NCBI GenBank assembly: GCA_043800555.1
Contig: JAZDMX010000003.1
Location: forward strand, 33,947-97,946
Length of the DNA stretch: 64,000 nt
Origin: Candidatus Omnitrophota bacterium
GTDB taxonomy: Bacteria; Omnitrophota; Gorgyraeia; Gygaellales; Profunditerraquicolaceae
Direction of reading: 5' to 3'
Both the position numbers and the translations under genes were made by a program. The stretch's first letter is position 1, and every line of letters begins with the position of its first letter. Positions 39,044-63,931 of this stretch are shown here, one piece after another. The notes under the pieces were generated by a model that was given only the letters and a program-made list of their open reading frames with translations, was not told the DNA's origin and ran no database searches.

Positions 39044-39109
39044 GGCAATGGGGACGTTTCTACTTTCCTAATAATGGAATTCTAGAAAAGTAGAAACGTC
39101 CCCATTGCC
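39044..39109. repeat. palindromic hairpin repeat, copy A (intergenic): GGCAATGGGGACGTTTCTACTTT-loop19-AAAGTAGAAACGTCCCCATTGCC
   Basis: Perfect inverted repeat arms 39044-39066 / 39087-39109. Same core as the copies at 46.4, 57.3, 61.0, 61.7 and 63.3 kb. Followed by a CCCCATTTTTCC mini-motif. Confidence 0.85.
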
Positions 39110-46438: not shown

Positions 46439-46544
46439 GGGGATGGGAAAAATGGGGACGTTTCTACTTTTCAAGAAATAAGCTCGGAAAAGTAGAAACG
46501 TCCCCAATTTTTCCCCCCATTTTTCCCATCCCCATTTTTCCCTG
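46439..46544. repeat. palindromic hairpin repeat, copy B (intergenic), with extended/tandemly reiterated CCCCATTTTTCC outer arms
   Basis: Core GGGGACGTTTCTACTTTT 46454-46471, 16-nt loop, AAAAGTAGAAACGTCCCC 46488-46505. Left flank GGGGATGGGAAAAATGGGG is mirrored on the right by CCCCAATTTTTCC-CCCCATTTTTCC-CATCCCCATTTTTCCC. Confidence 0.85.
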
Positions 46545-55049: not shown

Positions 55050-55460
55050 ATGAGGATGAAGAGAAGATGGAGCGGTTTTACGTTAATTGAACTTATTATA
55101 GTCATTGTAATTATCGGCATTTTGGCTTTAGTCGCTTTACCGCGTTATTTTGCCAACATTGAGAATGCCAGAAAAGCAGAAGCTTTGTCTACGATGCGTT
55201 CTTACCGCGAGGCCGAGTTAGCCTATTACGCCAAGAATGGAGCATATGTGGCCGTAGCAGCCTCTGGCGCGCTTAGAGTGGATATTGATGGCGATGGAGT
55301 GGCTGATATCTCAGTAGATGCCAATTCAAGCAATTTCACTTTTGCCGCCACTACCGCAGGCGTTATTACCGCGACCCATACGGCTACGGGAGGCACAGTT
55401 AATTATTATATGTGCGTGGAGAGCGGTAAGGCGGGCACAGGGACAGCTTCTTGTCCGTAA
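55050..55460 (+). CDS. type IV prepilin (class III signal: RRWSG|FTLIELIIVIVIIGILA)
   Basis: Gly-1/Phe+1/Glu+5 prepilin peptidase motif and hydrophobic alpha1 helix. 136 aa with C-terminal Cys pair. Confidence 0.8.
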   Translation: MRMKRRWSGFTLIELIIVIVIIGILALVALPRYFANIENARKAEALSTMRSYREAELAYYAKNGAYVAVAASGALRVDIDGDGVADISVDANSSNFTFAATTAGVITATHTATGGTVNYYMCVESGKAGTGTASCP

Positions 55461-55506
55461 TCCAGTAAACTTACGTGACGGAGTTATAGCAGCGAACGCA
55501 AAATAT

Positions 55507-55890
55507 ATGGCTAAAACAAACAAGAAAAACGCGTTTACTCTACTAGAGCTGCTTATTGTAATAACTTTAGTTGGTATTTTGGCTGTTATAGTTATGACTA
55601 GGTACGGGGCAGTCGCGGAAAACGCCCGCTCGGCGGAAGCATACGCTGTTTTAGCTGAGGTCGCTGCTTCGGAAAGCGGCTATTACGTGGAAAATAACGC
55701 GTATACAACTACCTGGTCGAATTTAGACAGGTATGCTGCTGCTCCCCCAAGCGATAATTTTACCTATACCCTTAATTCCGGTTATTACGGTAAGGCCGCG
55801 CCAAAATCAGGGCGGGGGACGAAGACCTATTATATGTGTTTTGACGGAACGAACAAAGGGACAGCTATCCCATCGTGTTCGACTCCTTAA
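55507..55890 (+). CDS. type IV prepilin (KKNA|FTLLELLIVITLVGILA)
   Basis: Prepilin N-terminus with Glu+5. 127 aa, C-terminal Cys pair (YYMCFDGTNKGTAIPSC). Confidence 0.8.
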   Translation: MAKTNKKNAFTLLELLIVITLVGILAVIVMTRYGAVAENARSAEAYAVLAEVAASESGYYVENNAYTTTWSNLDRYAAAPPSDNFTYTLNSGYYGKAAPKSGRGTKTYYMCFDGTNKGTAIPSCSTP

Positions 55891-55891
55891 G

Positions 55892-56350
55892 ATGAATAAG
55901 AAAATCCCGCTAGAGAAAAGTATTGGTGAAAAAGGCTTTTCTCTGGCGGGATTTACTTTATTGGAATTGCTTCTGGTGGTTACGGTTATAGTGATCCTAG
56001 CCTTAATAGCCATTCCCGGATACAATAAGTCTAAGAACAGGGCAATAGGCAAGGAAGCTGTTGCCAATCTCAAGCTTATAGCCGCGGCAGAGCGGATATA
56101 TAAGATGGAGAATGATTCCTATATTACATGCGTATGCACAAATTCTACTACTTGCGCAGCGTCTACCGGATGTAATTCCCGCCTTAGGCTGATGTTGAAT
56201 ACGTCAAACTGGCAATATGGAGTGACCGGTTCTGCCACAGCCGTTACCGTTACGGCTACTTACAAGTTAAATAGCAGTTGCAAGTATAATATTTACAGCT
56301 CAAACTTCGATTTAGACCCTGTAAAATCAGGCGCAGCAAGTTGCCCTTAG
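55892..56350 (+). CDS. type IV prepilin (SLAG|FTLLELLLVVTVIVILA)
   Basis: Prepilin N-terminus with Glu+5. 152 aa, several Cys. Confidence 0.8.
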   Translation: MNKKIPLEKSIGEKGFSLAGFTLLELLLVVTVIVILALIAIPGYNKSKNRAIGKEAVANLKLIAAAERIYKMENDSYITCVCTNSTTCAASTGCNSRLRLMLNTSNWQYGVTGSATAVTVTATYKLNSSCKYNIYSSNFDLDPVKSGAASCP

Positions 56351-56354
56351 GCGG

Positions 56355-56732
56355 ATGATGAATAAAAAAGCCCTAAGCCTGCTGGAAATAATTATTTCTA
56401 TGGTGATATTAGCTATGGTCATTGCCGGCGTAGCTAGTGTTTTTGTGGCGGGTAAGAGGTTTATACTGCATAACCGCTCCCGGATGGCCGGAAGCGAGTT
56501 AGGCAAGGTATTCCTGGATCCTCTGCAGGCTTATATCAGGCAGGACACCTGGGCCGGAAGTAATTGTTTTAATACCAATAATGCCAGTAACCCCGCTAGT
56601 ATGGCTAGTTGCCCTTCAGTCCCTGTAACTTATACCATCGGTTTTTTGACTTATACCCCTCAATATTACATTAGTAATATTAATACCAATATTAAGAAAG
56701 TGAAAATGGTGGTGAGCTGGCCTTCTGAATAA
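56355..56732 (+). CDS. minor (pseudo)pilin, prepilin-like N-terminus (KKA|LSLLEIIISMVILAMVIAG)
   Basis: Glu+5 retained, non-canonical Ala-1/Leu+1. 125 aa. Confidence 0.65.
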   Translation: MMNKKALSLLEIIISMVILAMVIAGVASVFVAGKRFILHNRSRMAGSELGKVFLDPLQAYIRQDTWAGSNCFNTNNASNPASMASCPSVPVTYTIGFLTYTPQYYISNINTNIKKVKMVVSWPSE

Positions 56733-57340
56733 TGCGCGTTGACCTTCGTCAATCCTTAACCCTGGTGGAGTTATTAATCGCCATATCGTTATTGGCGGTA
56801 ATGATCTTGGGTGTTAGTAACATCGATGTTTTCAGCCGGTATCATCTTATTACCACTGACCACCGGGCCAAGCTGCAAAATGATGTTTCGCTTTGCCTTG
56901 AACATATGACTAAGAAGTTGTCTGGCGCCATAGGCAATGAAACGCTTTATGGGGCGAATTCCGCGGTATTCATCAGCCCGAATTCTACAAACACCGCTGT
57001 TTTATCGGTATTAGCGGACGCAAACGGCAGCGGCCAGAGGGAGCTTATCGGAGGGGATTATTGGATTGGGTATAATTTTGACTCTAGCGCAAAACAGTTT
57101 AGATATTGCGGTCAATGCACCAGCTCCTTATGTTCTTCATGTTCTGTGGCGCAAGAGGTCCTAGCCAGGAACATAACCGCATTTTCAGCCTCTAAAGATT
57201 TTTCCCGGGGAAACTATATAAACGTTACTCTTACCGCTTGCAGCGATCCTACGGGGGCAACTGCTTCCTGCGGATCTTCTAATAACCCCGCAGTTACTAT
57301 GTCCACCAGTATTACCTTGCCCGCAGTTGCCGCTAACTAG
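56732..57340 (+). CDS. minor (pseudo)pilin, prepilin-like N-terminus (RQS|LTLVELLIAISLLAVMILG)
   Basis: Glu+5 retained. 202 aa. Last gene of the pilin block. Confidence 0.65.
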   Translation: MRVDLRQSLTLVELLIAISLLAVMILGVSNIDVFSRYHLITTDHRAKLQNDVSLCLEHMTKKLSGAIGNETLYGANSAVFISPNSTNTAVLSVLADANGSGQRELIGGDYWIGYNFDSSAKQFRYCGQCTSSLCSSCSVAQEVLARNITAFSASKDFSRGNYINVTLTACSDPTGATASCGSSNNPAVTMSTSITLPAVAAN

Positions 57341-57343
57341 AGT

Positions 57344-57413
57344 GGGAAAATGGGGACGTTTCTACTTTTCCGGCAGCTAAACTCAGGAAAAGTAGAAACG
57401 TCCCCATTTTCAT
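57344..57413. repeat. palindromic hairpin repeat, copy C (intergenic, between pilin block and tRNA-Ala)
   Basis: GAAAATGGGGACGTTTCTACTTTT 57344-57369, 18-nt loop, AAAAGTAGAAACGTCCCCATTTTC 57388-57413. Perfect 24-nt arms. Confidence 0.85.
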
Positions 57414-57429
57414 GATATAATAAAAATAC

Positions 57430-57502
57430 GGGCCTGTAGCTCAGCTGGGAGAGCGCCTCGTTCGCAACGAGGAGGTCAGCGGTTCGATCCCGCTCAGGTC
57501 CA
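57430..57502 (+). tRNA. tRNA-Ala (anticodon CGC)
   Basis: 73-nt cloverleaf. Acceptor GGGCCUG/CAGGUCC with the G3:U70 Ala identity pair, D-arm GCTCAGCTGGGAGAGC, anticodon stem CCTCG/CGAGG with loop TTCGCAA, T-arm GGTTCGATCC. No encoded CCA. Confidence 0.9.
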
Positions 57503-57609: not shown

Positions 57610-58833
57610 ATGAAGAATATTGGCGAATTAATTTTAAGCGTAGTTTTCCTTGTTGCTCTGATTTTGTTTTGTGTTTTCCTGCCCGGTTTGTTTGATTCTC
57701 AACAATTAACCCGTTTGATGCATTCCGGTTTAAAGCCCGGGGTTTGCCCTGTCCGGGATGCGGTATTCCCCTTGGACCCTTTGAATGGCCCGGGATCGAG
57801 CTCTTTGTTAGAAGCCGGTGAAGTGTTGAAAGAGGCGTCTTTTTATCAGAAATTGGAAAAAAACGCCGTCCAATGCCGGCTTTGCCCCCGCCGCTGCGTG
57901 ATCCCGGATGGCTTACGGGGCTATTGCGGCGCGCGCCAAAACCGTAACGGAGTATTGTATACTTTGGTTTATGCTAAGCCCGTGGCAATACATATTGACC
58001 CTATAGAGAAGAAGCCTTTGTTCCATTTCTTGCCGGCTACAACCGTTTATTCGGTAGCTACCGCCGGATGCAACTTAAAATGTAAATTCTGCCAGAACTG
58101 GGAGATATCCCAGAGTAAGCCCGAAGACCTCGAGTATGTTTATCTTGAACCTAAAGATTTAGTAAGAAAGGCCAAGGAGTCAGGCTCGCCGGCAATAGCC
58201 TATACTTATAACGAGCCGACTGTATTCTATGAATATATGCTTGAGACTGCAAGGCTCGCCCGCCAGGAAGGCTTAAAGAACGTTATGCATTCTAACGGCT
58301 ATATAAACGAAGAGCCGCTTAGGGCTTTGGCTAAATTCCTTGACGCGGCTAACATTGACCTTAAGGGTTTTAGCGACGATTATTACGCTAAAATTGCCGA
58401 GGGCTCGCTCGGCCCGGTTTTAAATTCCTTAAAAATATTAAAAGAAGAAGGCGTGCATATAGAGATAACCACCTTGCTCCTTTCGGGTTTTAATGACGAT
58501 GCGCAGGGCCTAAGGAAGCTGTGCCTGTGGATTAAGGAAAATTTGGGGGCGGATACCCCTTTGCATTTCTCGAGGTTTTTCCCGATGTATAAACTAATGA
58601 GCCTTGCGCCGACTCCCGTAGAATCGCTTGAAAAGGCCAGGGAGATCGCTATTGATTGCGGATTACGTTATGTCTATATCGGAAATGTCCCGGCTAACCC
58701 GGCAGAAAATACCTATTGCCCTAAATGCAAAAAGCTTATTATTGAACGAAGAGGTTTTTTTGTCGTCCAGAATAACCTGGAAGACGGCAAATGCAAGTTC
58801 TGCGGCGAGAAAATCGCAGGAGTGTGGAAATGA
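57610..58833 (+). CDS. AmmeMemoRadiSam system radical SAM enzyme
   Basis: CRLCPRRC N-terminal Cys motif, and CNLKCKFC radical-SAM CxxxCxxC. The family-typical start aligns near 57823 (GTG/TTG, ...KEASFYQKLEKNAVQC). The ORF as drawn adds an about 70-aa N-terminal extension with a predicted TM helix. Confidence 0.85.
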   Translation: MKNIGELILSVVFLVALILFCVFLPGLFDSQQLTRLMHSGLKPGVCPVRDAVFPLDPLNGPGSSSLLEAGEVLKEASFYQKLEKNAVQCRLCPRRCVIPDGLRGYCGARQNRNGVLYTLVYAKPVAIHIDPIEKKPLFHFLPATTVYSVATAGCNLKCKFCQNWEISQSKPEDLEYVYLEPKDLVRKAKESGSPAIAYTYNEPTVFYEYMLETARLARQEGLKNVMHSNGYINEEPLRALAKFLDAANIDLKGFSDDYYAKIAEGSLGPVLNSLKILKEEGVHIEITTLLLSGFNDDAQGLRKLCLWIKENLGADTPLHFSRFFPMYKLMSLAPTPVESLEKAREIAIDCGLRYVYIGNVPANPAENTYCPKCKKLIIERRGFFVVQNNLEDGKCKFCGEKIAGVWK

Positions 58834-60470
58834 CAATAAAAAGGGATTGTCGCCATAGGCTGCTCCGGAAGCCGGGTAGCTTCCTGTTGCTTCGGCATTG
58901 TTTTGCCCTGTTTCGCAGGCGCCTTGTATTTTTGGCAACTACTGGTTTCTTAGTTTCTGTTTTGAGTTTTGGCGTTTGCCATTCGTTATATGCCGGAGGC
59001 ATAAAAGAGCCTTGCGTTGCCGGGACATTTTATCCCGAAGACCCCGGAGAGCTTTCTAAGATGATTGACGCATTCTTGGAAGAAGCAAATCCTGAAACGG
59101 GGCCGGTTGGCCGGGTTTTCGCCTTAATTTCTCCTCATGCCGGTTACGGCTATTCGGGTAAAGTCGCGGGGTTCGGCTACAAGCTTATCAAGGCCAAAGA
59201 GTATAAAACGGTGGTAATTTTAGGTACGAGCCATCACTATGCCTTTAGCGGAATTTCGGTTTATCCCGGCGGCGTATTCAAAACTCCGCTTGGAGGAATT
59301 CCGGTAGATGATGAATTTACCCAAAAATTGCTCAATAAAGGCCCGGCTGTAACATTCGTCCCGGAGGCCTTTCAAGAAGAGCATAGCGTTGAAGTGCAGC
59401 TGCCGTTTTTACAAAAGACGCTGGATAATTTCAAGATTGTCCCGGTAGTCATTGGCGACGTTTCTTTATCTACCTGCCAGAAGTTTGCCGCTTTGCTTAA
59501 GGAATCAATTAATACGCGTAATGATGTTTTGTTGGTTGTTTCTACCGATATGTACCACGGATATGATTATGAGGAGGCGGATAAAACCGATAACCTTACC
59601 TTGGCCGCTATAAAGAACATGGACGCGCAAGCCCTTTATTACGGGATTCGTGATGAGAAAATGCAGCTTTGCGGAGGTTTCGGGGTTGTAACCGCCCTTA
59701 TTTTAGCCAAAAGCATGGGCTATGATAAAGCGGTATTATTAAAACATACAAACTCTGCGGAAGTTACCAATAATATGAAAAAAGGTATCTGGACCGTAGG
59801 TTATTCAAGCTGGGCTATTGGCGCTTCTATGGGATCCAGCGTCAATGGCGGGCAGAGTCGAACCAGTGGCGCTTCTTTAGGGCCCAGCGCCAATCCGGGA
59901 GGAGAAGCCATGTTTAATAAAGGTCAGAGGAAGCGGTTGCTTGAGATTGCGCGCGCTGCTATAGAGGCATATTTAAAGAATGGCAAGGTTTTAGAGATTA
60001 CCGAGACGGACCCTGCTTTGGCAAAGACTACAGGAGCTTTTGTTACCCTTAATGAACACGGGGATTTGCGCGGTTGTATAGGAAGCCTCCTGGGGACAGA
60101 ACCGTTGTATTTAACCGTGCGGGATATGGCGGTTGAGGCTGCTACGGGCGATTCCCGCTTTAACCCGGTAAAGCTGCCGGATTTAAAGAATATTGAGATT
60201 GAAGTATCCGTTTTATCTCCTATGCAGAAAATCGACGATCCTGGCCTGATTAAGCTTGGGGTCCACGGTGTTTTAGTGCGGCAAGGCTACAAGAGCGGGG
60301 TATTCCTTCCCCAAGTAGCTACGGAAACAGGATGGTCAAAAGATGATTTTATGTCGAATTTGTGCGTCCATAAAGCGGGCCTTGCCCCCGATGCCTGGAA
60401 AGATAGATCTACCGAAATTTATATTTTTACGGCGGAAGTGTTTTCCGAGAAAGAGATGAGCGGTGGTTAA
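58830..60470 (+). CDS. fused AmmeMemoRadiSam system protein B (MEMO1 family) + protein A (AMMECR1 domain), with N-terminal Arg-rich/hydrophobic extension
   Basis: ATGA overlap with the radical SAM gene. N-terminal half has MEMO1 motifs (VAGTFYPEDP...ISPHAGYGYSG...ILGTSHH...DMYHGYD). C-terminal about 190 aa is AMMECR1 (GAFVTLNEHGDLRGCIGS...GVLVRQGYKSGVFLPQVA). The first about 50 aa (RRRLVFLATTGFLVSVLSFGVCHSLYA) look like a signal peptide or membrane anchor. Confidence 0.85.
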   Translation: MTIKRDCRHRLLRKPGSFLLLRHCFALFRRRLVFLATTGFLVSVLSFGVCHSLYAGGIKEPCVAGTFYPEDPGELSKMIDAFLEEANPETGPVGRVFALISPHAGYGYSGKVAGFGYKLIKAKEYKTVVILGTSHHYAFSGISVYPGGVFKTPLGGIPVDDEFTQKLLNKGPAVTFVPEAFQEEHSVEVQLPFLQKTLDNFKIVPVVIGDVSLSTCQKFAALLKESINTRNDVLLVVSTDMYHGYDYEEADKTDNLTLAAIKNMDAQALYYGIRDEKMQLCGGFGVVTALILAKSMGYDKAVLLKHTNSAEVTNNMKKGIWTVGYSSWAIGASMGSSVNGGQSRTSGASLGPSANPGGEAMFNKGQRKRLLEIARAAIEAYLKNGKVLEITETDPALAKTTGAFVTLNEHGDLRGCIGSLLGTEPLYLTVRDMAVEAATGDSRFNPVKLPDLKNIEIEVSVLSPMQKIDDPGLIKLGVHGVLVRQGYKSGVFLPQVATETGWSKDDFMSNLCVHKAGLAPDAWKDRSTEIYIFTAEVFSEKEMSGG

Positions 60471-61179
60471 AATAGTTGCGAGCAGCTTTATTTTGGGGCT
60501 TGCGCTCGGCAGTGGGCCGTGCTTAGCTAGTTGCGGCCCGCTGTTTTTGACTTATATAGCCGGTTCCGGCAAGGGAGTTTTAAAAAGCCTGGAGTCTTAC
60601 TTTTTATTTTCAGCGTCGCGGATATTCGTTTACTTGATTTTAGGCTTATTATGCTTTTTTTTCGGCAGGTTAATCTTTGTGAGATTAGGGGATATTTTCA
60701 AGTTTATTTTGTTTGGCGCGGGCCTCTTTGTTGTTTCCCTTGGCATACTTATGGTTTTGGGTAAGGGAGTAAATTCGGCCCATTGCTCTTTTTTGCGGGA
60801 ACGTATTCTTGAAAAAGACAGTAAAGGCGTAGTCATCCTTGGGTTATTTGCTGGGCTATTGCCCTGCGCGCCTCTAATAGCTATGTTCACCTTTACGGGG
60901 TTAACCGCTAAAAGCGCCTTCGAGAATTTATTGTATTCTTTTGCATTCGGTTTAGGGACAGCTATTTCTCCGCTTATAGTTTTAGCCGGGCTGGCAGGCT
61001 TACTCCCCGCGCTCTTCAGGAAAAAGGGGGACGTTTCAAAAAAGGGGGACGTTTCTACTTTTCCCAATACTAGCTATAGAAAAGTAGAAACGTCCCCCTT
61101 TTTCTTGAGGCTGTTCCATATTATTTGCGGTTTGATTATGGTATTCTTAGGGATTCAGCTAATTCGGAGAATATTTTAA
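60463..61179 (+). CDS. integral membrane protein with paired TM cysteine motifs (GSGPCLASCGP ... LLPCAPL; CcdA/DsbD-like thiol-disulfide or metal transporter family?) carrying an in-frame repeat insertion
   Basis: 6-7 predicted TM helices. Residues about 186-214 (RKKGDVSKKGDVSTFPNTSYRKVETSPFF) are encoded by repeat copy D. The hydrophobic reading frame resumes after it (LRLFHIICGLIMVFLGIQLI). Confidence 0.5.
   Translation: MVKIVASSFILGLALGSGPCLASCGPLFLTYIAGSGKGVLKSLESYFLFSASRIFVYLILGLLCFFFGRLIFVRLGDIFKFILFGAGLFVVSLGILMVLGKGVNSAHCSFLRERILEKDSKGVVILGLFAGLLPCAPLIAMFTFTGLTAKSAFENLLYSFAFGLGTAISPLIVLAGLAGLLPALFRKKGDVSKKGDVSTFPNTSYRKVETSPFFLRLFHIICGLIMVFLGIQLIRRIF
61021..61103. repeat. palindromic hairpin repeat, copy D (inside CDS, in-frame), with an extra 5' partial arm duplication
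   Basis: AAAAAGGGGGACGTTTC (partial) then AAAAAAGGGGGACGTTTCTACTTTT, 17-nt loop, AAAAGTAGAAACGTCCCCCTTTTTC. Belongs to the five-G / AAAAAG-flank subtype. Confidence 0.85.
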
Positions 61180-62001
61180 ATGAATAAATTTTTCTGTAAG
61201 GATTCGGATATGCAGGAGGACAAAATCAACATTTCAAATAAGGAGGATGTCCACCATATAAAGAATGTCCTTAGGCTAAAGCAGGGCGGAAAGGTTGAAG
61301 TCTCTGATGAATCGGGCAATGTTTATGCCTGCGAAATCTTCCGGATAGACGATAACGTCCATTTGGTTGTTAAGAATAAAATTTGCTCTACCGGTATAGA
61401 CCGGGGGATAGAATTAACTGTGGCAGTCGCTATCCCCAAGAAGGCCAAGATAGACGATATCATAGATAAGCTGGTCCAATTGGGGGTGCGCAGGGTTATC
61501 CCTTTGAAAACGGAACGCGTGATAGTGAAACTGGATAAGCAAAAGGAAGCCGACCGTTTTCTGCGCTGGAAGAAGATTGCGCTTTGCGCGGCTAAGCAGT
61601 GCAAAAGGAGCGATTTAGCTGTTATTGAGCCGGTTAGGAGCTTTAAGGACGTTGTCGCGGATTCAAGCAGGTTTGATTTAAAGCTTATTCCGTATTTGGG
61701 AGGGGAACGGAGAACTCTTAGGGATGTTTTAGCAAAGGGGGACGTTTCTACTTTTCTTGAGCCTGGTGCCAGAAAAGTAGAAACGACCCCCTTTGCTTTG
61801 AAAAGTAGAAACGTCCCCCTTTTTTCTAAAGTAATGGTTTTAATCGGGCCGGAAGGCGATTTTTCCGAAGAAGAGGTTCAGTTGGCTTTATCCGCGGGGT
61901 TTATCCCGGTTACGCTGGGAAGTTTAGTTTTACGCGTGGATACCGCTGCTATTGCCGTAGCCGGTTTCATCAGGCTGTTTTTAGGTCAGGAGCGGTTTTA
62001 A
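61180..62001 (+). CDS. rsmE: 16S rRNA (uracil1498-N3)-methyltransferase RsmE, carrying an about 30-aa in-frame repeat insertion
   Basis: PUA-like N-terminus and SPOUT C-terminal domain (VLIGPEGDFSEEEV...LGSLVLRVDTAAIAVAG). The segment KGDVSTFLEPGARKVETTPFALKSRNVPLFS is encoded by repeat copy E, between conserved blocks. Confidence 0.8.
   Translation: MNKFFCKDSDMQEDKINISNKEDVHHIKNVLRLKQGGKVEVSDESGNVYACEIFRIDDNVHLVVKNKICSTGIDRGIELTVAVAIPKKAKIDDIIDKLVQLGVRRVIPLKTERVIVKLDKQKEADRFLRWKKIALCAAKQCKRSDLAVIEPVRSFKDVVADSSRFDLKLIPYLGGERRTLRDVLAKGDVSTFLEPGARKVETTPFALKSRNVPLFSKVMVLIGPEGDFSEEEVQLALSAGFIPVTLGSLVLRVDTAAIAVAGFIRLFLGQERF
61731..61826. repeat. palindromic hairpin repeat, copy E (inside rsmE, in-frame): one left arm plus two right arms
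   Basis: GCAAAGGGGGACGTTTCTACTTTT, loop, AAAAGTAGAAACGACCCCCTTTGC (one mismatch, flank-complementary), then a second right arm AAAAGTAGAAACGTCCCCCTTTTTT. Confidence 0.85.
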
Positions 62002-62056: not shown

Positions 62057-63301
62057 ATGAAGATAAAATTTTATACCCTTGGCTGCAAAGTAAACCAATA
62101 TGATACCCAGAGTATCCGGGAGCGTTTTCTGGCGCATGGGTTCAAGGAGGCGCGCGGGCCAGGCAAAAGCGATTGTTATCTTATAAATACTTGCACCGTT
62201 ACGGCTATGGCCGACCAGAAATCCCGCAGGCTGATCCGGCATTGTATCAGCGAAAACCCGCAGGCCAAAGTAATAGTAACCGGTTGCATGGTTAAGAATG
62301 ATTCCGGAGAGTTAGCCGGAATTCGCGGCGTGAGCCTGATTATCAGTAAAAGTTTTTTTAGCGAAGGGATAAGCGATTTTTCTTCGCATACCCGGGCGTT
62401 TTTAAAGATTCAGGATGGTTGCGATAATTTTTGCTCCTATTGCAAGGTGCCTTTGGCGCGCGGCAGGTCAAGAAGCAGGCCCTTAACGGATGTAATTAAA
62501 GAAGCCCGGGCCCTAGCCGAAAAAGGCTTCAAGGAAATAGTCTTAACCGGTATATGCCTGGGTTCTTACGGCAAGGATCTCGGAAAAGGCATAGGGCTGG
62601 CAATGGTTATCGAAGAGATGGAGAAGATAGAAGGGTTATCGCGTATCCGTTTGAGTTCTATCGAGGCCGGCGATATTACCGAGCCATTGATCGATAAGAT
62701 GTCTAAATCCAAGAAGCTTTGCCGGCATTTGCATATTCCTCTCCAAAGCGGGGATGATGATATCTTAAAGAAGATGCGGCGTAAGTATTCGCGTAAATTT
62801 TATCTTGATCTTATTAAGAGGATAAAAGCCAAGATCCCGCAAATAGCCATTACTACTGATTGCCTTGTCGGCTTCCCGGGGGAGAAAGAAAGAAATTTCA
62901 GGAATACCCTGGATTTAATCAATAGTATCCTGCCTTTAAGGGCGCACATTTTTCCTTATTCTCCCAGAAAGGGAACAAGCGCTTATCTAAAGGCGGTTCA
63001 TCTTGGTTTTTCATCGCCCGAGCTTGTTAGAAGGCGTGTCGCTGTCCTTAAATCCGCGGCCAGCCTGTGTTCCGATAAGTATAAAAAGCGCTTCTTAGGC
63101 CGCACAATGCTTGTTCTTTTTGAAGGTAAATCCAGGGCAATGAGGGGGTGCTGGGAGGGTTATACTGATAATTATATTAAGGTTATTTTCAGGTCCCGGC
63201 GTAATTTAAAGAACAGGCTGGTATATGTCAAGCTTAAGGGTATTTTTGGCGATGCCGTATTGGCTTCCCGGAAAAAGGGGGACGTTTCTACTTTTTTCTA
63301 G
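62057..63301 (+). CDS. mtaB: tRNA (t6A37) methylthiotransferase MtaB (MiaB/RimO radical-SAM methylthiotransferase family)
   Basis: MTTase N-domain YTLGCKVNQYDT...INTCTVT, radical SAM CxxxCxxC in DGCDNFCSYCKVP, C-terminal TRAM domain. The last 9 codons (KKGDVSTFF) and the TAG stop come from repeat copy F. Confidence 0.85.
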   Translation: MKIKFYTLGCKVNQYDTQSIRERFLAHGFKEARGPGKSDCYLINTCTVTAMADQKSRRLIRHCISENPQAKVIVTGCMVKNDSGELAGIRGVSLIISKSFFSEGISDFSSHTRAFLKIQDGCDNFCSYCKVPLARGRSRSRPLTDVIKEARALAEKGFKEIVLTGICLGSYGKDLGKGIGLAMVIEEMEKIEGLSRIRLSSIEAGDITEPLIDKMSKSKKLCRHLHIPLQSGDDDILKKMRRKYSRKFYLDLIKRIKAKIPQIAITTDCLVGFPGEKERNFRNTLDLINSILPLRAHIFPYSPRKGTSAYLKAVHLGFSSPELVRRRVAVLKSAASLCSDKYKKRFLGRTMLVLFEGKSRAMRGCWEGYTDNYIKVIFRSRRNLKNRLVYVKLKGIFGDAVLASRKKGDVSTFF

Positions 63302-63338
63302 GCTTAGCGCCGGAAAAGTAGAAACGTCCCCCTTTTTC
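63271..63338. repeat. palindromic hairpin repeat, copy F (forms the 3' end and stop codon of mtaB)
   Basis: GAAAAAGGGGGACGTTTCTACTTTT 63271-63295, 18-nt loop containing TAG, AAAAGTAGAAACGTCCCCCTTTTTC 63314-63338. Confidence 0.85.
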
Positions 63339-63529: not shown

Positions 63530-63931
63530 ATGAATAGAAAAGGTTTTACGCTTGTTGAAATTATGATCGTTGTGGCGATTATCGCATTATTGGCAGCTAT
63601 TGCTATACCTAACTTATTAAGCGCCAGGATGACCGCTAATACGGCAGCAGCTAAGGCCAACATCCGTAGTTTATCTACAGCCTGCGAAACGTATTCAACC
63701 GCAAACAGCGGCGCGTATCCGACCACGGTAGCTGAATTAACTACTTTTATCAGTTCCGCAGCTTCTTATTGCGCTGACGCAGCCGGCACAGCTGCTACGG
63801 TTCAGGGTTACCAATACCATTGTACTTTGGGGACAGGCAGCTATACGTTAGTGGCTAATCCGGTTACCGTAGGCACAACCGGCACTACGACATATACCGC
63901 TACTACAGGAGGAGTGCTTACGCCATTATAA
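63530..63931 (+). CDS. pilA: type IVa major pilin PilA-like (NRKG|FTLVEIMIVVAIIALLAAIAIP)
   Basis: Canonical class III signal peptide with Gly-1/Phe+1/Glu+5. 133 aa, Thr/Gly/Ala-rich C-terminal region with a Cys pair. SD AAGGGGG upstream. Confidence 0.85.
   Translation: MNRKGFTLVEIMIVVAIIALLAAIAIPNLLSARMTANTAAAKANIRSLSTACETYSTANSGAYPTTVAELTTFISSAASYCADAAGTAATVQGYQYHCTLGTGSYTLVANPVTVGTTGTTTYTATTGGVLTPL

Follow-up and report, generated by a model that had tools for sequence, protein, structure and literature searches.

A 64,000-nucleotide stretch of contig JAZDMX010000003.1 (hereafter the window), from a Candidatus Omnitrophota metagenome-assembled genome, carries the Omnitrophota form of the AmmeMemoRadiSam module: a translationally coupled three-gene operon encoding the radical S-adenosylmethionine (SAM) enzyme AmrS, a fusion of the MEMO1-like protein B with the AMMECR1-like protein A (amrBA; the B-A protein), and a DsbD_2/CcdA-like membrane protein. 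AmrS and the B-A protein both begin with leaders that fall outside the family models. These leaders, the DsbD_2 partner, and a sister clade whose AmrS proteins bear twin-arginine translocation (Tat) signals define a new variant of a known system. The original prediction for this DNA had raised a membrane or periplasmic location, and this is the reading favored by the comparative data (conserved leaders, a triple fusion, and the Tat sister clade) and predicted by heuristics; we consider the odds about even that the operon represents an extracytoplasmic or membrane-bound form of AmmeMemoRadiSam.

Gene identities and organization of the operon

The assignment of the three genes is, on profile and structure matches, close to certain. 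All genes and protein segments located below lie on the plus strand of the window. The first gene, amrS (57610..58833), encodes a protein of 407 amino acids (aa) that scores 378.9 bits against TIGR04337 (cut-off 220), aligning over residues 77-406 only, and 86.5 bits against PF04055; its cluster motif CxxxCxxC is present as CNLKCKFC, placing it in the radical SAM superfamily, and it carries an extra N-terminal CxxCxxxC...C motif and a C-terminal CxxC...CxxC motif. The second gene, amrBA (58830..60470), encodes 546 aa. Its Memo domain (residues 59-329; 59004..59816) scores 259.5 bits against TIGR04336 (cut-off 26) and 212 bits against PF01875, matches the MEMO1 structures 3BCZ and 7KQ8 (E = 3e-21), and has H103, H135, D240, H243 and C281 as invariant residues. 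The AMMECR1 domain (residues 369-538; 59934..60443) scores 180.8 bits against TIGR04335 (cut-off 99) and 185.9 bits against PF01871, matches PH0010 (1VAJ; E = 6.7e-37), and contains the invariant LRGCIG motif (R414-G415-C416-I417-G418). The three signature families are thus matched far above their cut-offs by adjacent, co-oriented genes, as expected of the RefSeq amrA/amrB/amrS system. Both proteins are 100% identical to NCBI entries on a 304-kb contig, the B-A protein to P0001 and AmrS to P0121 ('AmmeMemoRadiSam system radical SAM enzyme [Candidatus Omnitrophota bacterium]'); the JGI label for AmrS is 'pyruvate formate lyase activating enzyme'.

The two genes overlap in the sequence ATGA, with the ATG of amrBA at 58830 and the TGA of amrS at 58831-58833, so that the coupling of one B-A polypeptide to the radical SAM gene described in the original prediction stands. 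The length of 559 aa given there does not. The longer product would begin at ATG 58791, which lies inside amrS in another frame, and its 13 extra codons (MQVLRRENRRSVE) are the out-of-frame 3' end of amrS; the true product starts at the coupled ATG 58830, the initiation codon annotated by NCBI for P0001, with AGGAG 7 nt ahead of it. Public B-A entries (P0022-P0119) often begin 'MENVNFAERKLKVSG', 'MQVLRR...' or 'MQILPGGDQG', which is the conserved amrS 3' end (…DGKCKFCGEKI.GVW; window equivalent 58791-58829) read in another frame, a systematic over-extension of the start codon. Over-extended amrS calls in relatives run into the tRNA-Ala gene directly 5' of the operon, as in P0078, whose N-terminus reads 'MGERYIRIVEVAGSNP'. 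Gene order is conserved in 43 of the 62 species loci with sufficient flanking sequence.

The B-A fusion

No stop separates the TIGR04336 and TIGR04335 matches in the window, where a stop between the MEMO1 and AMMECR1 halves had been named as a refutation of the fusion. Joining of the two domains was first presented as a departure from the usual separate proteins, a view that the wider survey overturns. In a species-level scan with one genome per species, which returned at least 577 loci and from which the best 80 (almost all Omnitrophota) were examined, B and A share one uninterrupted frame in 77 of the 80. Both Pfam domains occur in 120 of the 120 best database matches to the B-A protein, for which JGI already uses the name 'protein B/protein A'. 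Beyond the phylum, B and A are likewise joined in the RefSeq 'amrB' proteins from Ideonella dechloratans (464 aa) and from Segatella hominis (491 aa), and the 150 cluster representatives nearest the window A domain comprise approximately 89 full-length B-A fusions, 17 stand-alone A proteins and one triple fusion amrS-B-A (P0297). A second candidate triple fusion, P0295 (861 aa), was rejected, consisting instead of an uncharacterized 400-aa N-terminal domain followed by B-A. The B-A fusion is therefore already known and common. It is the norm in Omnitrophota and has RefSeq examples among Betaproteobacteria and Bacteroidota, and its status as a rarity is set aside.

The domains are connected by a low-complexity linker (59817..59933) that a repeat search shows to be lengthened by an imperfect 48-nt tandem duplication of 82% identity (59819-59846 and 59867-59894; repeat family D4); the linkers of relatives are shorter. 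An AlphaFold2 model places both domains with confidence (mean predicted local distance difference test, pLDDT, 86.5) and leaves linker residues 335-358 disordered (pLDDT <50). No confident interface between B and A was found in this model (predicted template-modeling score 0.57), so the physical B-A complex that the original prediction saw supported is suggested by the fusion alone.

Conserved leaders on both proteins

The first 28 residues of AmrS (MKNIGELILSVVFLVALILFCVFLPGLF; 57610..57693) form a hydrophobic leader, of which residues 7-28 read LILSVVFLVALILFCVFLPGLF, and leaders of this kind, with the pattern MKNxx(K/R)LIL...LP...A(Q/E), are borne by all Omnitrophota AmrS proteins and conserved in more than 115 database homologues and 49 species loci. 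The roughly 75 N-terminal residues that precede the TIGR04337 match correspond to the extension of about 70 aa with a transmembrane (TM)-like helix noted originally. A typical relative has 367 aa and begins MKNxx(K/R)LILxxxFLFxLIxxCFYLPxxxA(Q/E)xxLKEALFYQKL. Relatives retain the reading frame, a leader of 31-32 codons and its hydrophobic character, with synonymous and hydrophobic-for-hydrophobic changes among them. Maximal 12-residue Kyte-Doolittle hydropathy reaches 3.55 in the window leader, against a median of 2.95 in Omnitrophota and 1.53 in the Tat clade discussed below. The charge of the N-terminal flank exceeds that of the C-terminal flank in 87 of 115 Omnitrophota AmrS proteins, and a site resembling that of signal peptidase I closes the leader in 45 of 49 species loci as compared to 21 of 49 in shuffles. 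No Tat motif is apparent, the window leader (MKNIGE...) lacking arginine altogether. A lipobox was considered on account of a semi-conserved Cys in ...SCIFLP and rejected by eye, position -1 being inconsistent.

Between leader and core, the window AmrS has a lineage-specific insert of approximately 40 aa (120 nt; 57694..57822), which replaces the 'SLEQ' of relatives, is absent from all of them, and accounts for the difference between 407 and 367 aa. No similar DNA was found elsewhere in the window or in 86 loci, and a mobile or repeat element was rejected as its source. This insert and the coupled DsbD_2 gene had been overlooked in the original prediction.

The leader of the B-A protein is a predicted signal peptide (residues 1-56; 58830..58997) with an Arg/Lys-rich n-region, the h-region LVFLATTGFLVSVLSFGV, and the c-region CHSLYA with predicted cleavage before GG; residues 32-56 read LVFLATTGFLVSVLSFGVCHSLYA, and the net charge ahead of this segment is +9. 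Topology and signal-peptide calls throughout are sequence heuristics (charge, hydropathy and cleavage motif), and by these the charge, the h-region and L-Y-A followed by GG conform to export by the general secretory (Sec) pathway and cleavage by signal peptidase I. All relatives have such a leader (120 of 120 database homologues, 77 of 77 species loci): the n-region is basic, approximately 20 uncharged residues follow, and the c-region is short and stops three residues ahead of a conserved motif, (I/V)K(E/Q)P or more loosely (I/V)K.P. Position -1 is Ala in 53, Ser in 7 and Gly in 3 of the 77 (63 together), and position -3 is C, S, L, V or A. Individual residues vary but these properties are retained, as is typical of a cleaved Sec signal peptide. 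In the AlphaFold2 model, residues 18-54 form a single helix detached from the fold. The Tat-like character first ascribed to this leader is not supported by conservation: FRRRLVF in the window fits a minimal RRx-hydrophobic-hydrophobic pattern and the h-region is of moderate hydropathy (2.16), but a motif of this type survives in just 3 of the 77 relatives, and the Tat reading was dropped as not conserved. Among the approximately 89 full-length fused B-A clusters near the window A domain, at least 59 were scored as leader-bearing (signal or lipoprotein) and about 10 were clearly without a leader.

Because the same features recur in 120 and 120 database homologues and in 77 and 49 species loci (for B-A and AmrS, respectively), the N-terminal segments represent more than chance. 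The extensions on both genes, as originally proposed, are conserved coding sequence and not annotation noise; that both are translated is very probable, and that the B-A protein is exported is likely, though less assured.

A translationally coupled DsbD_2/CcdA-like membrane protein

The third gene (60463..61179) encodes a polytopic membrane protein of 238 aa matching PF13386 (DsbD_2; 74.9 bits) and PF02683 (28.4 bits). The gene starts with the GTG at 60463 and shares 8 nt with the end of amrBA, an overlap of equal length being present in the related locus L001. The motifs GPCxxxCGP and PCxP are conserved at 90% or more in 35 DsbD_2 sequences, placing conserved Cys in two helices, as in DsbD-type proteins. 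Among the 62 species loci, 39 have both amrS and the DsbD_2 gene, 4 have amrS only, none has the DsbD_2 gene only, and 19 have neither (Fisher p = 2e-12, without correction for phylogeny). The Cys motifs fit a CcdA/DsbD-type relay of thiols or of metal, and electron transfer would be a tentative role for the protein, beside its genetic association with amrS. A weak match to the ArsG permease (1.8e-4) was also recovered, and the family does include permeases.

Evidence for a possible shared compartment of AmrS and B-A

Three comparisons bear on whether AmrS is located on the same side as B-A. In P0078, a triple fusion of 854 aa recovered from six contigs, a single N-terminal leader precedes both proteins; the AmrS C-terminus (...GEKIAGVW) joins the mature B-A sequence (DYIKQPNA...) directly, and a second hydrophobic segment is absent. 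The loci of P0013, P0007 and P0016 have lost amrS and retain an intact B-A protein behind an amrS-type leader (MKNISRLILS...LPNLYAQDIKEP), a leader type seen on four proteins in all (these three and P0005). The amrS leader therefore serves, in these genomes, a protein that is signal-peptide-dependent everywhere else. The differing types of B-A leader among amrS-less loci suggest more than one loss of amrS. These relatives (L006 5001-6473 and the contigs of P0007 and P0016) have lost the DsbD_2 gene as well, and in two of the three loci a gene for an IS200-like Y1 transposase lies just upstream. Elsewhere in Omnitrophota, the genome of one species carries amrS twice in tandem (L020; 2335-3339 and 3938-4933), ahead of the B-A gene.

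The third comparison is with the sister clade of AmrS proteins, which share 50-54% identity with the window AmrS, as against 41-47% for leaderless AmrS (Ideonella, Trichlorobacter). A canonical Tat signal (for example CNRREFLKNCGLLTGIAAGSLVVPSLTAPARA, cut before Q) is present on 105 of 120 of them by the strict pattern RRxF[LIVM], and on up to 112 of 120 (P0410-P0529); examples are the genes at L090 7726-8895 and L093 5001-6200. Hosts include Latescibacteria, Eisenbacteria, Zixibacteria, Brocadiales, Planctomycetia, Caldithrix and Proteobacteria. The loci encode B-A fusions with lipoboxes and adjoining DUF362 proteins with Tat signals of their own, and in one of them (L094) a multihaem cytochrome gene ends 30 nt upstream. 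As Tat exports folded, cofactor-loaded proteins, an exported radical SAM enzyme is a straightforward prediction for this clade. To the question of whether AmrS and B-A share a compartment, the triple fusion, the leader swap in amrS-less genomes and the Tat sister clade all say yes, on comparative grounds.

A mechanism consistent with these data can be outlined. The fused Memo-AMMECR1 protein would be exported via Sec and cut by signal peptidase I after ...LYA, releasing it into the periplasm. AmrS would be brought to the membrane by its very hydrophobic leader, of the signal recognition particle (SRP)/Sec type, and would come to lie on the same outer side as B-A; the window copy probably stays uncleaved, as a signal-anchor whose tether is 40 aa long. 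The paired Cys in TM helices of the DsbD_2 protein could then pass reducing power across the membrane, keeping the Cys-rich AmrS functional, or the protein could alternatively pass a metal or small molecule. The three proteins would act together on a substrate located in the envelope, most likely a membrane isoprenoid or lipid, or the B-A protein itself, with RNA less likely. In another lineage, a TM-anchored amrS-B-A triple fusion (L091 5001-7517) divergently adjoins genes for a UbiA prenyltransferase, an NAD-dependent epimerase and an acyltransferase (L091 3974-4840, minus strand), neighbors that hint at a lipid or isoprenoid context. Burroughs and colleagues (J Biol Chem, 2019) reportedly link Memo systems to isoprenoid modification, an idea that the UbiA gene beside the triple fusion fits.

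Several points weigh against this mechanism. For a radical SAM enzyme outside the cytoplasm, no supply of SAM or of low-potential electrons is known, nor is any periplasmic route for iron-sulfur (Fe-S) cluster assembly. Export via Sec delivers unfolded, cluster-free protein. Omnitrophota AmrS leaders are without twin arginines (RR in 4 of 49) and far too hydrophobic for Tat (2.95 versus 1.53); they are of the Sec type, so an exported AmrS would be an unfolded apo-protein. In the window itself, the AmrS n-region has a net charge of 0 and the C-terminal flank of +1, and LFD/SQQ replaces the usual Ala/Ser cleavage site, which leaves this copy with a topology signal that is weak, if not inverted. 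In P0401, a distant triple fusion, basic (Lys-rich) residues follow the TM helix, suggesting a cytoplasmic domain. In Segatella, B-A bears a leader and its partner AmrS has none, so co-localization of the two is not obligatory. The Fisher test that associates amrS with the DsbD_2 gene ignores phylogeny. Finally, the flanking genes rsmE and mtaB encode cytoplasmic RNA-modification enzymes, which fits the RNA hypothesis for AMMECR1 (PMC4075521). On balance, we rate a radical SAM domain outside the cytoplasm as a shade less than an even prospect.

Alternative explanations

One alternative is that the extensions are not translated, amrS starting at GTG 57823 or TTG 57826 (candidates named in the original prediction) and amrBA at an internal TTG, which would yield ordinary cytosolic proteins. 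Such starts would agree with the weak AAGG, 9 nt ahead of ATG 57610, that is the only such sequence there, with TIGRFAM models that begin at residues 77 (AmrS) and 59 (B-A), and with the gene-calling habit, described above, of extending B-A proteins into the amrS 3' end. The open frame, the length, the MKN start and the hydrophobic character are nevertheless kept in all relatives through synonymous changes, the 31-32-codon leader upstream of the internal amrS candidates being conserved in every one; AGGAG stands 7 nt ahead of ATG 58830; and the leader persists through gene fusion or loss. The internal amrS start was accordingly rejected, and the explanation as a whole appears largely refuted and very improbable. 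It is also unlikely, if less remotely so, that both leaders are uncleaved anchors holding cytoplasm-facing AmrS and B-A on the inner membrane, where they would act on a lipid (isoprenoid, quinone) with the DsbD_2 protein merely a partner or transporter. The high hydropathy of AmrS leaders, the UbiA gene adjoining the TM-anchored triple fusion, and the isoprenoid modification reportedly proposed for Memo systems by Burroughs and colleagues agree with this arrangement. The B-A leaders do not: their strongly basic n-regions (+9 here) cannot cross the membrane, which puts the mature part outside; Ala at -1 and a small residue at -3 directly ahead of the mature domain would not persist in a pure anchor; and many B-A fusions outside Omnitrophota carry lipoboxes.

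Because of the problem of extracytoplasmic SAM, electron and Fe-S supply, the main rival is a split topology, in which B-A is exported and AmrS stays on the cytoplasmic side, held to the membrane next to the translocon (N-out/C-in). In this position AmrS would use cytoplasmic SAM and reductant on B-A or a small precursor before or during export, as anaerobic sulfatase-maturating enzymes treat sulfatases, and the supply problems would not arise. The window AmrS leader is compatible with this orientation in its flanking charges, its missing cleavage motif and its flexible 40-aa tether, as are the Lys-rich stretch of P0401 and the leader borne by B-A and not by AmrS in Segatella. AmrS is, moreover, closest to the protein-activating family of pyruvate formate-lyase activating enzyme (PFL-AE) and NrdG, and a published system includes a radical SAM enzyme by which a periplasmic effector is matured (PMC13128918). 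Against a split stands the triple fusion, which has AmrS and mature B-A behind one leader with no second hydrophobic segment. Most Omnitrophota AmrS leaders, further, have the positive n-region and the Pro...Ala site before Gln/Glu of cleaved signal peptides, the amrS-type leader drives B-A in amrS-less genomes, and the Tat signals of the sister clade export the enzyme itself. We judge the split topology to be rather unlikely, although it merits more weight than the two preceding alternatives.

Genomic neighborhood and repeats

Directly 5' of the operon lies a conserved neighbor, a gene for tRNA-Ala(CGC) (57430..57502, plus strand; identified by ARAGORN, with an Rfam tRNA score of 65.6 bits), and 3' of the DsbD_2 gene are rsmE and then mtaB. 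The operon belongs to a synteny block conserved across the phylum (window approximately 55050-57340 and 63530-63931; L001, L004, L006), in which genes for the ATPase and platform of a type II secretion system or type IV pilus, four to five prepilin-like genes and tRNA-Ala are followed by amrS-amrBA-dsbD2, rsmE, mtaB and a further prepilin-like gene. Rfam finds only the tRNA in a search for a riboswitch or other RNA between tRNA-Ala and amrS, and promoter and terminator scans around the operon give background levels. The best sigma-70-like promoter match (57393-57421; TAGAAA-17-TATAAT with an upstream TG) overlaps the 3' arm of a palindromic element and ends 9 nt before tRNA-Ala.

This element belongs to a family of palindromic repeats of about 65 nt, each with a near-perfect stem of 25-26 bp, GAAAA(A/T)GGGGACGTTTCTACTTTTCC, and a variable loop of 13-18 nt. 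Copies are found at 39050-39103, 46454-46505, 57346-57411, 61039-61103, 61731-61824 and 63271-63338, with 13 arm matches in place of 0.01 expected. The copy at 61039..61103 lies in frame within the DsbD_2 gene and adds 22 aa, at which over half of the 35 sequences in the alignment show a gap; this copy does not belong to the AmmeMemoRadiSam system. Another is in frame within rsmE, where it adds approximately 24-29 aa that are a gap in more than 80% of 69 orthologues, and one spans the mtaB stop. The two in-frame copies are reminiscent of Rickettsia palindromic elements, which likewise sit in frame. The exact 20-mer of the palindrome was recovered from only 5 JGI metagenome contigs and from none of the other loci examined.

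Relation to known systems

Relative to the AmmeMemoRadiSam system as previously defined, the window proteins differ in their leaders, in the coupling of DsbD_2 as a fourth part, and in the unique 40-aa insert of AmrS. The nearest comparison is the Tat-AmrS clade (for example Latescibacteria DG_63 AMJ46_05260 and Eiseniibacteriota CP070702.1), which likewise has a leader-bearing fused B-A protein and a system predicted to be wholly extracytoplasmic, but which has the twin-arginine motif RRxFLK at a hydropathy of 1.53 and, in place of DsbD_2, Tat-signal DUF362 or multihaem cytochrome partners. Human MEMO1 (3BCZ, 7KQ8) and AMMECR1 and the archaeal proteins PH0010 (1VAJ) and MM0484 (1ZQ7) share the folds, the Memo His/Asp/Cys site and the AMMECR1 LRGCIG motif, yet are separate, leaderless proteins of the cytosol or nucleus; the eukaryotic pair is not known to have a radical SAM partner. 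PFL-AE (3C8F) is the nearest solved radical SAM relative of AmrS, though a distant one (E = 6e-6). AmrS scores only about 50 bits against glycyl-radical activase families with cut-offs of 131-250, has its additional Cys motifs, and has no glycyl-radical enzyme gene encoded near it in the window. The DsbD_2 protein resembles CcdA/DsbD transporters in being polytopic with conserved Cys in PC-type motifs of two helices; unlike them, it has no thioredoxin-like periplasmic partner that could be seen at the window locus. The anaerobic sulfatase-maturating enzyme is a radical SAM precedent in serving Sec-exported sulfatases, and is itself soluble, leaderless and equipped with a SPASM domain; AmrS, by comparison, has its own leader and no SPASM domain.

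Proposals for AMMECR1 function have centered on RNA base modification (PMC4075521), and PMC7159879 refers to 'Memo-Ammecr1 systems', citing Burroughs et al. 2019. Our literature search recovered no report on leaders or localization of AmmeMemoRadiSam, nor on exported radical SAM enzymes, although an earlier mention is possible.

Implications

Conservation of MEMO1 and AMMECR1 extends from archaea to humans, and both are tied to human disease, yet neither has a known biochemical function; what they do is hinted at chiefly by their pairing, in bacteria, with a radical SAM enzyme. Export or membrane signals on both partners in hundreds of bacterial species, together with the Tat sister clade, provide a testable constraint, namely that the substrate is in the envelope, and they challenge the view of radical SAM chemistry as exclusively cytoplasmic. 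They also bring forward new candidate components: the DsbD_2 membrane protein, DUF362 proteins and multihaem cytochromes. In its broadest and most tentative form, at somewhat under even odds, the proposal is that a radical SAM enzyme works outside the cytoplasm and that, across a large bacterial superclade, the whole machine (AmrS and Memo-AMMECR1) resides in the periplasm. Delivery in Omnitrophota would rely on Sec-type leaders and a dedicated DsbD-like membrane conduit, and Latescibacteria, Eisenbacteria, Zixibacteria, anammox Planctomycetes and others would use Tat signals and Tat-exported DUF362 and cytochrome partners. If this is true, the Memo/AMMECR1 substrate would be an envelope molecule and not RNA, and an extracytoplasmic route for SAM or a substitute must exist. 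The comparative evidence from these diverse lineages suggests that the supposedly cytosolic AmmeMemoRadiSam system may work at or beyond the cell membrane.

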